This document shows, in pieces, positions 6,901 to 9,900 of a stretch of 64,000 bases of DNA. The position numbers were made by a program. The first letter of the stretch is position 1. Each line of letters starts with the position of its first letter. The stretch lies in assembly GCF_002854065.1 (NCBI RefSeq), contig NZ_CP024150.1. One strand, 5' to 3'. The DNA comes from Escherichia coli (GTDB taxonomy: Bacteria; Pseudomonadota; Gammaproteobacteria; Enterobacterales; Enterobacteriaceae).

Positions 6901-9900
6901 GCCAGATGGGGATGATTACATGGAGCTTACAAGACAGCATGAAACATTATCCCTTACATGCTCGAATAGTATCATTAGAGAGCTGGCCTTTGATGCTTAC
7001 TATGCTGTTTCTCATGCATGCACAATGGGGACTGCAAATCGCGATGAAAAAGCCCCAGCCCGGAAAAAAGCTAAAGAGGCTTTAGATAAGTTTCAGGGAT
7101 TTGCCAGCGAAGAACTACGTCGTGAGAAAGCTGCAATTGATGTAATAAGCGATAAGCGGACATTCTGGTCCTTTAGACGGCGAACAGCGCGATGATGGTG
7201 TCCGGAGCGCGGAAAATCTTGTTTAAAATATCTAGCGCGGTAGCAGAAAGAAAACGCATTAGCCATCAACTGTATCTCGTTACTGGCACAAGAATTAATT
7301 CATGTATTACAGCAAGTTAGCAATTATGCGCAGTAGAAGTTATCGTGGAGTTTTTTGATGGAAGAAGTAACCCCCATGGAAATAAAAATGAGGGGTACGC
7401 TATACTCAAGTAACTTGAAGATGCTGGATGATTGAATTCCAACCACTGTATATTTTAGGCCGCATACATGATATTCAAAACAATTTTTTCAGTAATACTT
7501 TTTCTTTCATTTTCTGCCGCAGCACAACCACAAAAGTTGGAGTGTGTCAGCCGAAAGGATGGTACGGTAAAAATAGCGCATATTTTCAGCAGTCCATCAA
7601 ATAAGGGGCTGCTGGAGTTTGATAGTGCCATTTTTACGAAGGTGGATTCAAAAATAGAATCAGGAAATTTGAAAACCTTGTTTTCTACTCAACAAGAAGA
7701 GAGGCAAAAAGAAAGTCGCGTGATTTTTTTAACACTAAGAGACAGAGATGCCGAAATATTTGTCACAAGAAAAACTGGTAACAATGGTTATGAAGATGGG
7801 ATGATTTATGAATGTAATCCCTGAACATTTAATCCTTTTAGATATATTTAAATAAAATTTAGTCAAGAAAAGTGAACACATTTATGTTTCATAAGGAGTT
7901 TGTATGCTGGGTACTTCATTTCAACAGTTTTCGATAGAGGCGCTTCTGGAAAGTGCTTCACTACGCAGTGGACTGACAGCATTGAATAAGTGTAAATATC
8001 ATGATAAAGGCAGCTTTTATAATGCTTTTTTCAACTATCAATTGGTCTGGAACGTTTTTTAAAATTATTTATGTTGTTCAGTATATGATTGAAAATGATT
8101 TAAACAAACCAACATATAGTCATTTGAGAAAATTAGGTCATGATATAAGTACTTTACATCAAAATGCAGTAAATATTGCAATCAAATATGAGAAAAGAGA
8201 CAAAGGCAAATGGGTCTTAAATGATGAGCAATCTGCAATATTAACAATGCTATCGGAATTCGGGAAAGAAACCAGGTATTATAATTTAAATACTATTATT
8301 GGAGATAAAAAACTAATGAATGACCCTCTCGAGCAATGGAATTGTATTTTGGAGTATTGCTACTGGAAGTATACTTCAGCAACTAAAAGAGAGAGATTGA
8401 GTCAAGATGTAATCTCATGGGCTGAGAGAAATCGATTGTATGGTTTTACTAATGAATTTGGCCTCGATGGTCATATTATGACGTATGTAGATCAGTATCT
8501 ATTGAACTGGAAAGTAACCAAAATTTCGCCTTGCATTGCATGGGAAATAATTAGCATGTTGCAACCGTATTACTTTTTGCTAATGAGATTACGAGATACT
8601 GTGCAGTTGAAGGAACAAGATAAAGGCATTAAAGACCCTTTAGTACCATACTTTCATGAGATTTTCCCATATTTCCTTTTAGATCGTGCAACAGCGAAAA
8701 GACGTAGGAATTGGCTTGATTAGCCGCAATACTATTTCTAGACAGAATGAGTGTATGTCCAAGTCGGGCGAGGAATTAAACGAGAGGCGTAAAAAAGGCC
8801 ACTTACGCGGCCTTTGTCTGTTGGTTCTTCGGCCTGGTGACATACCACGATAAACATCCCACAGCTACACTCATCAACATTCCGGATAAGCGATCATCTG
8901 CCTGAGAAAACAGGCAACCGACAAACATCGCAACAGGGAAAGGAAGAAGTAAACAGCGCCCCAAAATGCTCATAAAATCCATAAATCCTCCTTTGTTAAA
9001 GGGCAGGAAGCGGTGCACTTCCTGCCCTTAGTTACGTTTCCGCAGTCATCAATCGATGAACTGGCGAATCAGTTCCAGAACAGCAATCAGCGCGTTTGCA
9101 ACGGCGACCACAGCCCTGAGAACGATGATTAACAGGTTAATCATCCGTTTCTCCAGATTGACACTGGAGGAAGTCACCGTTGCTTGCTCATACATCGCCT
9201 GTCACAACGGCTCTCTCACAATGTTGGATGTAGAGTACCTTCCCCCTGCCAGAGCACTGAACACAGCACCACCTGTTTGTTCAGCCAGGACTTTAATTCG
9301 TTCATACCCAGATAGCGCAGGGTTTAGAAGCAAGGGAGGCAACACTGTACAGCGCCAACACAAAGATTATACCGATGCACGCATAAAATTCATTTAAAGA
9401 AATGACCATTGACAGACAATCTGAAGTCAAACTAGACAACCGGTGTCTAGTGCCATAATATTATGGATGTTGGATGTAGAGTATCTTCCTCCAGTCAGAG
9501 CCACCAACTCAAAGCTGGAAAACACGAAAAAGCCCGATTACCAGTCGGGTTTTTTTGTGCCTGGCGTTCGGCTGTTCTTCCGTTTTTCCCCTTCATTTTA
9601 GGGTTTTTCTTTCTGTTTTTTTGTTGCGTCCAATGCCGCTGGTCGCGTTGACCAATAGCTCAATGTCGTTACCGGCATTTTCATAAATCCAATTTTTTCG
9701 GTAAGTTGAATCACACAAGATGATTAAAAAGCTGTCGGTTTTTTTGATGGATACAGTAGCGGCGGTGCGCTGCGTGAAATCTGATATTTTTCAGGAAGGA
9801 CTGAGCGCGAGAATTGGCGAGGGGGCATCAAAATATTTTTTGGGCATGAATGGAAATTCCCCCTGTTCTGGGCATTAAATAAATCCCACTCTGAAAAGTG

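Follow-up and report, generated by a model that had tools for sequence, protein, structure and literature searches.

Type I toxin-antitoxin modules of the DinQ kind are known from both chromosomes and plasmids. The chromosomal dinQ-agrAB locus of Escherichia coli K-12 has been described in two studies (Weel-Sneve et al. 2013, PMC3567139; Kristiansen et al. 2016, PMC5066626), the second of which also named the dql family. In 2025, the DqlB-AgrB modules of pOXA-48 (IncL; PMC12365149) and pOXA-484 (IncX3; PMC12317039) were reported to be toxic, to be neutralised by agrB and to act as addiction or stability modules on both plasmids. DqlB-AgrB modules are widespread among conjugative resistance and virulence plasmids, to whose stability they contribute, and their small size means that annotation often misses them.

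The locus considered here lies on an IncFIA/IncFII plasmid of E. coli, in a 64,000-nucleotide stretch of contig NZ_CP024150.1 (the window), into which an IncX1-type neighbourhood has been transplanted. It is an intact, ordinary copy of this already described and annotated family, and very probably a functional plasmid-borne DqlB-AgrB module of type I, acting by post-segregational killing. Toxicity, rescue by agrB and plasmid stabilisation would be properties carried over from homologues only: the exact peptide variant is IncX1-type, here on an IncF plasmid, and the experiments concern homologues. A sequence-only reading had recognised a type I locus with a hydrophobic peptide and a divergent, trans-acting sRNA, and the matches to NCBIfam NF041473, Rfam RF02891 and RefSeq, together with collinearity with K-12, support that identification and show that a locus of this type can be correctly identified in this way.

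Toxin gene, antitoxin RNA and the repeat that joins them

The core of the module consists of the following features.

8995-9029, minus strand: dqlB terminator hairpin, a 12-bp stem followed by UUUAAC (inverted repeat 8999-9010 / 9018-9029; homologous to the K-12 dinQ terminator)
9049-9144, minus strand: dqlB, gene for a 31-aa hydrophobic type I toxin, MINLLIIVLRAVVAVANALIAVLELIRQFID (open reading frame, NCBIfam NF041473, RefSeq identity)
9221-9255, minus strand: AgrB target site in the dqlB 5' leader, copy 1 of the 35-nt direct repeat
9433-9461, plus strand: predicted sRNA promoter, TAGACA-17-TAATAT (promoter scan; placed relative to the Rfam match as in K-12 agrB)
9470-9557, plus strand: AgrB-type sRNA of about 88 nt, with a 5' pairing region (9470-9501), an internal stem-loop and a Rho-independent terminator (9525-9557) (Rfam RF02891)

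The reading frame at 9049-9144 is present as had been proposed, encoding a hydrophobic 31-aa peptide behind a good Shine-Dalgarno (SD) sequence (GGAG, 9151-9154, spaced 6 nt from the ATG). The peptide aligns with NCBIfam model NF041473 (DinQ_rel, DqlB) over all of residues 1-31 at 72.8 bits (cut-off 35), and its sequence is the same as that of RefSeq WP_000609149.1, annotated as “DinQ-like type I toxin DqlB”. The description of this frame as unannotated has to be withdrawn, as public RefSeq records already annotate the identical sequence as dqlB. The matches in E. coli are found overwhelmingly on plasmids (2240/2269), and dqlB is under strong purifying selection, with dN/dS of 0.06-0.19 against 13 homologues. 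Scans of the 31-aa peptide gave no significant match in Pfam-A and no match in PADLOC or PHROGs, and the 240-aa and 500-aa neighbours matched nothing in PADLOC, PHROGs or NCBIfam; PF28061:DinQ is listed as “faint” among the precomputed matches for the identical peptide.

An in-frame ATG further upstream, at 9195, would give a 48-aa product. It was rejected as the main product, since neither the family model nor the RefSeq annotation extends beyond the C-terminal 31 residues and the SD stands before the 31-aa start. The choice has a parallel in DinQ, of which only the shortest form is active (PMC3567139). Downstream, the dqlB terminator has a tail of only 3 U; in K-12, numbering based on the corresponding dinQ terminator agrees with the reported transcript of ~330 nt (PMC3567139).

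On the opposite strand, the sRNA unit matches the Rfam AgrB model (RF02891) over its whole length (1-84/84) at 61.5 bits, with a gathering score of 40, and is the only AgrB match within the 64-kb window. The predicted 88-nt RNA folds at -28.8 kcal/mol (z = -4.4), and the unit ends in a strong terminator hairpin bearing a run of 7 T. The promoter-like hexamers and the strong terminator attributed to this unit at the outset could both be located, at 9433-9461 and 9525-9557. The sRNA gene is situated on the 5' side of the toxin gene, from which it diverges without overlap (toxin start at 9144 on the minus strand, sRNA from 9470 on the plus strand), and the predicted promoters of the two stand back to back. 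T1TAdb places the sRNA gene within about 500 nt of its toxin (PMC8594479), a distance within which the present layout falls.

The two units are joined by a direct repeat of 35 nt (9221-9255 and 9467-9501, 31/35 identical), the sole direct repeat detected in 8600-9800. It had been described as 23-25 nt long with a shared 23-mer at 9222-9244 and 9466-9488; the repeat and the 23-mer are real, but the latter occupies 9221-9243 and 9467-9489 and the repeat extends to 35 nt. In a blastn comparison of the locus with the whole window the repeat is recovered at E = 6e-7, and neither blastn nor the Rfam scan revealed a further copy of the locus, whole or in part, in the 64 kb. A direct repeat shared by two divergent units makes the sRNA complementary to the toxin leader, as had been anticipated: within the transcripts, 9470-9501 and 9224-9255 form a predicted 32-nt duplex in which 28 positions are Watson-Crick pairs, 3 are G·U pairs and one is mismatched. 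The full 35-nt duplex has an energy of -60 kcal/mol, and the whole-molecule duplex scores z = -6.9 against shuffled sRNA.

These features bear on the reading of the locus as a decaying, non-functional remnant in which the repeat is a leftover duplication with no regulatory role. In its favour, the copy sits within a mosaic, IS3-bracketed segment, and dqlB is rare on IncF plasmids, which seem to have gained it horizontally (PMC12365149). However, the ORF is uninterrupted and its product occurs widely in identical form; the SD, the promoters and both terminators are intact; the Rfam and NCBIfam models are each covered in full, with scores above the curated thresholds; and, of the four positions at which the repeat copies differ, three still permit G·U pairing. 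Decay is therefore highly improbable, and a working DqlB-AgrB module is the preferred account.

Across 13 homologous loci the 5' end of the sRNA and its leader target co-vary. Cognate sRNA/target pairs share 27.8 of 33 positions, versus 20.9 for non-cognate pairs, and their duplex energies are -54.7 and -34.3 kcal/mol, respectively; the cognate partner ranks first in 12/13 loci, and none of 10,000 permutations attained the observed value. Some of the loci are close relatives, which makes the counts partly dependent on one another, and the pattern could owe something to gene conversion between the repeat copies. Duplex energies with the chromosomal K-12 partners lie at the shuffled background, so that the host's chromosomal AgrB is predicted to leave the plasmid dqlB armed, with no cross-talk. 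Divergent pairing sequences would then define mutually orthogonal AgrB/dqlB specificity classes, and, if this is true, co-resident plasmids and the host chromosome could carry such modules without cross-neutralisation.

Leader structure, the proposed switch and the SOS question

Control of dqlB is expected to lie in its long leader, where the following elements are predicted.

9151-9173, minus strand: SD hairpin (element 3:4), in which the anti-SD CUUCCUCCAG (9164-9173) pairs with CUGGAG (9151-9156), which includes the SD (predicted folds)
9237-9250, minus strand: element 2, within the AgrB target site (predicted leader fold)
9257-9284, minus strand: SL2-like leader stem-loop, CUGAACAAACAGG...CUGUGUUCAG (predicted in all folds)
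9329-9340, minus strand: element 1, a 5'-proximal segment pairing with element 2 to form the locking duplex 1:2 (minimum free energy (MFE) structure of the predicted full-length leader)
9366-9371, minus strand: predicted dqlB -10 box, TATAAT, with +1 predicted near 9359 and a leader of ~215 nt (read from sequence)

In 7/11 plasmid loci a perfect TATAAT precedes the toxin start by 203-221 nt. The SD hairpin, the homologue of the dinQ 3:4 hairpin of K-12 (PMC5066626), occurs in every predicted fold, with a probability of an unpaired SD of 0.003-0.03, and the MFE fold of the leader contains both this hairpin and the 1:2 duplex. The latter has its counterpart in the dinQ leader, where U16-C28 pairs with G94-G106 (PMC5066626), and element 1 probably locks element 2 in the full-length dqlB transcript. 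An alternative 2:3 pairing, of GGGGGAAG with CUUCCUCC, is predicted to be possible at +1.5 kcal/mol. Truncating the leader from its 5' end in silico raised the probability of an unpaired SD from 0.006 to 0.026, but the K-12 positive control also opened weakly (0.08 to 0.22), so that this folding test has little power; blocking the AgrB site in silico had no clear effect on SD closure, the K-12 control again being weak.

The proposed switch would work as follows. A constitutive sigma-70 promoter (-10 at 9366-9371) would produce, from the minus strand, a dqlB mRNA whose structured ~215-nt leader keeps the SD locked in the 9151-9173 hairpin while 9329-9340 pairs with 9237-9250. By analogy with dinQ, 5' processing would remove the locking segment, and the freed 9239-9246 could pair with the anti-SD (9166-9173), opening the ribosome-binding site. 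The ~88-nt AgrB-type sRNA would prevent this by pairing, over the 32 nt at its 5' end, with 9224-9255 of the leader, so that the SD hairpin stays closed, and the resulting duplex is probably an RNase III substrate. As long as the plasmid persists, no toxin would be made; upon plasmid loss the sRNA would no longer be replenished, the 31-aa inner-membrane DqlB would be translated, and the plasmid-free cell would be killed or arrested. For this copy, we infer the transcription start sites, the processing, the RNase III cleavage and the relative stabilities of the two RNAs.

The family archetype, dinQ, is under LexA regulation (PMC3567139), and the plasmid locus might likewise work as the chromosomal dinQ-agrAB does, as an SOS-induced stress toxin and not as a constitutive addiction module. 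A CTG-N10-CAG LexA-like motif is indeed found in the dqlB leader at 9273-9288, overlapping the stem-loop 9257-9284; it recurs at the same leader position in 8/11 plasmid loci, and the identical 20-mer on plasmid pTF2 has been scored at a heterology index (HI) of 11.64 (PMC12211044). This motif is the only CTG-N10-CAG at the locus, no LexA box being found at the dqlB promoter: the K-12 promoter LexA box, TACTGTATGATTATCCAGTT (HI 4.83), reads cGGTATAATCTTTGTG here, with both the CTG and the CAG half-sites gone and a perfect -10 box at its position. The leader motif, moreover, lies ~70-85 nt downstream of the predicted start and within a conserved RNA stem-loop, so that its conservation may reflect RNA structure. 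Neither is an SOS role favoured by the pTF2 proteome, in which induction of DqlB was not detected (PMC12211044), or by the homologues, which act as addiction modules (PMC12365149, PMC12317039). SOS control is accordingly judged quite unlikely, and constitutive expression of an addiction module is preferred.

A linked small membrane-protein gene

Behind the toxin gene the locus carries two further features.

8787-8808, minus strand: hairpin resembling a terminator, with a T-run, that overlaps the stop codon of ORF2 (terminator scan)
8803-8982, minus strand: ORF2, encoding a conserved, predicted small membrane protein of 59 aa with two hydrophobic segments (conservation, dN/dS)

The second small frame with a strong SD that had been pointed out after the peptide gene is present (AGGAGG at 8987-8992, 4 nt ahead of the ATG), and ORF2 is probably a real gene; it does not, however, belong to the validated two-component module. 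It is intact in all IncX1/X4-type relatives and linked to dqlB in these loci, always exactly 66 nt downstream. Its 42 homologue clusters are all unnamed, and no family match was found in NCBIfam, PADLOC, PHROGs or Pfam-A.

It is conceivable that the IncX1/X4-type lineage carries a three-component module, in which ORF2 is co-expressed by read-through of the dqlB terminator and either tunes DqlB toxicity, as an immunity factor or helper, or serves as a second membrane toxin. The constant 66-nt spacing in every locus having ORF2, the strong SD with no promoter of its own recognised in the promoter scan, the weak dqlB terminator with its 3-U tail, the two hydrophobic segments and purifying selection (dN/dS 0.11-0.19 at dS about 1) are all compatible with such an arrangement. 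Yet dN/dS rises to 0.3-0.45 in closer comparisons, ORF2 offers no family or functional hint, and the linkage could be plain co-inheritance within one plasmid lineage. Furthermore, ORF2 is missing from the sampled IncL/M (L016) and IncX3 (L013) loci, which represent the validated plasmid types, and from IncI, IncK, IncHI and other IncF loci, so that toxin-antitoxin function does not require it. A third component is thus rather unlikely, and the two-component DqlB-AgrB module is retained.

Relation to described type I systems

With K-12 dinQ-agrAB the locus shares gene order and orientation. The leader, the SD hairpin, the C-terminal half of the ORF and the terminator are homologous to those of dinQ (76% column identity), the sRNA is homologous to agrB over its whole length, and the leader is predicted to contain four complementary elements, 1-4, that may correspond to those of dinQ. 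The differences are equally distinct. The peptide has 31 aa versus 27 aa in K-12 DinQ and scores 25.3 bits with the DinQ equivalog model NF041472, below its cut-off of 30, and so is not DinQ proper; one sRNA stands in place of agrA and agrB, and an IncF plasmid location in place of a chromosomal one. The LexA operator of the K-12 dinQ promoter is not present in this copy, and the pairing sequences appear orthogonal to those of K-12, with cross-duplex energies at background.

In the zorO-orzO and tisB-istR-1 systems, an sRNA encoded divergently and without overlap base-pairs with the long, processed 5' UTR of an mRNA for a small membrane toxin, and this type I layout is common to them and the present locus. 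Membership in either was rejected, since the peptide matches only the DqlB and DinQ NCBIfam models, and no Rfam IstR or OrzO match was found in 7500-11000 even at E <= 10. Of the initial description of the peptide as TisB/DinQ/ZorO-like, it is the DinQ branch that stands, while tisB-istR and zorO-orzO do not serve as archetypes.

Like hok-sok, the module would be a type I system for post-segregational killing on a plasmid, its toxin mRNA being processed and locked by its own structure. Sok works in cis, on a target that it overlaps, and through the mok reading frame, whereas the sRNA here is trans-encoded and non-overlapping and would act on an SD-sequestering switch. A separate sok copy is present in the window at 63758-63914. 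The module adds an addiction system to its host IncF plasmid, beside hok-sok and a RelE/ParE pair.

Two modest observations go beyond the studies cited here: the locus-by-locus co-variation of sRNA and target, with the predicted orthogonality to chromosomal AgrB/dinQ, and the conserved small membrane-protein gene that, in one plasmid lineage, is closely tied to dqlB. In other respects the locus conforms to the plasmid DqlB-AgrB modules, with a single divergent AgrB-type sRNA, a plasmid location and a leader of ~200-220 nt behind a TATAAT -10 box; its sRNA/leader complementarity of 35 nt equals in length that of the pOXA-48 module. Peptide identity is 84% to the sampled IncL/M locus and 90% to the IncX3 locus, which are of the same plasmid types as the validated copies and not necessarily those sequences. 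What distinguishes this copy is its pairing sequence, and hence specificity class, which differs from those of the IncL/M, IncX3 and IncI copies, and the extra downstream ORF2, which the sampled IncL/M and IncX3 loci do not have.

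Identity of the toxin gene and its sRNA

By sequence similarity, three independent curated resources (NCBIfam, Rfam and RefSeq annotation) identify the locus as a member of the DinQ-like DqlB-AgrB family. The minus-strand peptide scores 72.8 bits against the NCBIfam model NF041473 "DinQ-like type I toxin DqlB" (cut-off 35) and falls slightly under the cut-off of the model for DinQ proper (25.3 vs 30 bits), while the plus-strand sRNA is a full-length match to the Rfam AgrB model RF02891 (61.5 bits, gathering score 40). A sequence-only reading had described a 31-aa hydrophobic ORF with a Shine-Dalgarno sequence (SD), a plus-strand unit with promoter-like hexamers and a strong terminator, and a second small ORF (ORF2) with a strong SD, all of which are present. 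Its type I toxin-antitoxin interpretation is supported by these above-threshold matches, with the family now corrected to DqlB-AgrB. The toxin ORF is not unannotated, as had been supposed: the peptide is identical to RefSeq WP_000609149.1, annotated "dqlB: DinQ-like type I toxin DqlB". The module is therefore already known, both as an exact sequence in RefSeq annotation and as a described and experimentally validated family.

Features of the dqlB-agrB locus
8803-8982 (-): ORF2, 59 aa, two hydrophobic segments
8987-8992 (-): AGGAGG, strong SD of ORF2
9049-9144 (-): dqlB toxin ORF, encoding MINLLIIVLRAVVAVANALIAVLELIRQFID
9151-9154 (-): dqlB SD GGAG, 6 nt 5' of the ATG
9151-9156 (-): predicted element 4, SD-containing CUGGAG
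9164-9173 (-): predicted element 3, anti-SD CUUCCUCC(AG)
9237-9250 (-): predicted element 2, inside the AgrB site
9329-9340 (-): predicted element 1
9221-9255 and 9467-9501: 35-nt direct repeat, 31/35 identical
9273-9288: LexA-like CTG-N10-CAG motif CTGTTTGTTCAGCCAG, inside the transcribed dqlB leader, within a conserved stem-loop
9433-9461 (+): promoter-like hexamers of the sRNA, TAGACA-17-TAATAT
9470-9557 (+): AgrB-type sRNA
9525-9557 (+): strong terminator of the sRNA

Strong purifying selection acts on dqlB (dN/dS 0.06-0.19), and the 88-nt sRNA folds at -28.8 kcal/mol (z = -4.4). Among complete E. coli genomes, megablast places the 871-bp region in 2030 records, with 2240 of its 2269 places on plasmids.

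Antisense pairing and the dqlB leader

The repeat previously taken to be 23-25 nt long does exist, although it spans 35 nt and its positions had been off by one base. It is significant against the whole window (blastn E = 6e-7), which holds no third copy by the same search, and no other direct repeat occurs in 8600-9800. The repeat copies have the same orientation and the two units diverge, which makes the 5' end of the sRNA antisense to the dqlB leader, as had been proposed; the pairing over 32 nt comprises 28 Watson-Crick pairs, 3 G·U pairs and 1 mismatch, so that wobble pairing accommodates three of the four positions at which the copies differ.

AgrB-type sRNAs were located with Rfam in 14 of 16 further loci, each with a cognate leader site. 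The first ~18 nt of the pairing region diverge strongly among plasmid lineages, with parallel change in sRNA and target. Across 13 sRNA/target pairs, several of them from closely related loci, cognate combinations exceed non-cognate ones in mean identity over 33 nt (27.8 vs 20.9) and in mean duplex energy (-54.7 vs -34.3 kcal/mol); in 12 of the 13 loci the best-matching target is the cognate one, and none of 10,000 permutations reached the observed cognate mean. Gene conversion between the two repeat copies could contribute to this pattern. AgrB/dqlB pairs appear to fall into specificity classes. Whole-molecule duplexes of the window sRNA with K-12 dinQ mRNA (-52.4) and of K-12 AgrB with window dqlB mRNA (-54.9) lie at the shuffled background (-51 ± 4), against -80.8 and -87.0 for the cognate duplexes, and the host's chromosomal AgrB is accordingly not expected to disarm the plasmid toxin.

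In full-length dinQ mRNA, which is translationally silent, element 2 is held by element 1 and the SD is sequestered by elements 3 and 4. Once the first 44 nt have been removed, element 2 is free to pair with element 3, which exposes the SD; AgrB, on binding the element 2 region, re-closes the SD hairpin and directs RNase III cleavage (Kristiansen et al., PMC5066626). By analogy, all four elements appear to have counterparts in the window copy, and in the minimum free energy fold of the predicted full-length dqlB leader the 1:2 duplex and the 3:4 hairpin occur together. In the 5'-truncated RNA the 2:3 alternative stands at +1.5 kcal/mol, compared with +3.5 kcal/mol in the K-12 control; in equilibrium folding the window SD stays closed after truncation, and even the control, experimentally shown to open, opens only weakly.

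ORF2 and the plasmid surroundings

ORF2 is intact in all IncX1/X4-type relatives and lies exactly 66 nt downstream of dqlB in every locus recovered via its homologues. It evolves under purifying selection (dN/dS 0.11-0.19 at dS ~1 in the deepest comparisons, 0.3-0.45 in closer ones) and is therefore probably a real gene. All 42 homologue clusters are unnamed, ORF2 has no match in NCBIfam, Pfam, PADLOC or PHROGs, and 100%-identical RefSeq records leave it unannotated. ORF2 is preceded by the dqlB terminator hairpin, which is homologous to that of K-12 dinQ and whose U tail is only 3 nt long. No promoter belonging to ORF2 itself was recognised, and putative expression by read-through is therefore plausible. 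Since ORF2 is absent from sampled IncI, IncK, IncX3, IncL/M, IncHI and other IncF loci, toxin-antitoxin function does not need it.

Neighbouring genes and other RNAs (RNAs: Rfam matches above gathering score)
8001-8723 (+): 240-aa hypothetical protein, upstream of ORF2
9941-11443 (-): 500-aa hypothetical protein, adjoining the sRNA
37687-37778 (+): CopA, IncFII replication control
39911-40094 (+): AS-pc02, antisense RNA
45025-45101 (+): AS-traI, antisense RNA
58863-58979 (-): ALIL pseudoknot of an IS3-family element
63758-63914 (-): sok, a second type I antitoxin

The 240-aa protein has no family match, and relatives L002 and L018 carry a 273-aa version in its place. The 500-aa protein, without a match in NCBIfam, PADLOC or PHROGs, shows by eye two similar halves, the motif HSRLF..DW..L..DD.L.W.ASD being present twice; a gene of equal size flanks dqlB-agrB on the IncX1 plasmid L008.

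Taken together, sok, CopA, AS-traI, AS-pc02 and the ALIL element point to a conjugative IncF plasmid that carries several addiction systems, and one fully identical record, an IncFIA/IncFII conjugative plasmid, is in keeping with the CopA, traI-antisense and sok RNAs. In a survey within the pOXA-48 study, dqlB was common on IncL/M, IncB/O/K/Z, IncI1 and IncX plasmids, but IncF plasmids carried it rarely (4.2%) and in a scattered manner (PMC12365149). The window copy fits this pattern; its neighbours (a resolvase, two hypothetical proteins, ORF2 and the 500-aa protein) are those of IncX1/X4-type plasmids. IS3 copies bracket the whole segment in the identical record, which suggests a mosaic or composite insertion of ~11 kb. 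In this identical record, L001, the IS3-family pair lies at 1-641 and 12051-13213 (window ~1-390 and ~11800-12962); the bracketed segment carries sodC, a 3'-5' exonuclease, DUF6710, RelE/ParE-NadS, the resolvase and dqlB-agrB, and is followed by a cholera/LT-type enterotoxin B pseudogene and a type IV pilus/T2SS cluster.

Comparison with dinQ-agrAB and other plasmid modules

The window locus and K-12 dinQ-agrAB are collinear. Their alignment, at 76% column identity, takes in the leader beyond ~dinQ +44, its SD hairpin, the ORF in its C-terminal half and the terminator hairpin; K-12 numbering places +1 at position 1483 of the K-12 record L003, which recovers the published ~330-nt transcript and element positions. 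Unlike chromosomal dinQ, the locus is on a plasmid, encodes 31 rather than 27 aa and has one sRNA instead of two; K-12 agrA and agrB both align to this sRNA over its whole length.

The promoter-overlapping K-12 LexA operator TACTGTATGATTATCCAGTT is replaced in the window by cGGTATAATCTTTGTG, which includes a perfect -10 box and lacks both the CTG and the CAG half-site. In 7 of 11 plasmid loci a perfect TATAAT stands 203-221 nt 5' of the toxin start, which supports this as the predicted dqlB promoter. The CTG-N10-CAG form, confined to the promoter in K-12, occurs here in the leader as the sole LexA-like motif, and 8 of 11 plasmid loci share it at the equivalent position. The motif may be a real operator or may simply follow from the conserved RNA hairpin. 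The identical 20-mer has a heterology index of 11.64 on plasmid pTF2, where DqlB induction was not seen (PMC12211044).

Certain plasmids have a pair of tandem modules, or of AgrB-type sRNAs, that differ in pairing sequence (pJT01, IncHI2, L007: 615-1104 and 1271-1766, the second toxin a 27-aa form; L009: 1662-1749 and 2302-2386). At E <= 0.01 the Rfam AgrB model finds no sRNA beside dqlB in L015 (IncFII/IncR) or L016 (IncL/M, pOXA-48-like backbone). As agrB was identified and validated on pOXA-48 (PMC12365149), the model fails to detect the more divergent of the AgrB variants on plasmids.

Experiments on DqlB-AgrB of pOXA-48 (IncL; PMC12365149) and pOXA-484 (IncX3; PMC12317039) have demonstrated toxicity, its neutralisation by agrB and plasmid addiction/stabilisation. 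The window peptide is 84% identical to that of the sampled IncL/M locus L016 and 90% to that of the sampled IncX3 locus L013, loci on the same plasmid types as the two validated modules; the 35-nt complementarity reported for pOXA-48 (PMC12365149) equals the window repeat in length.
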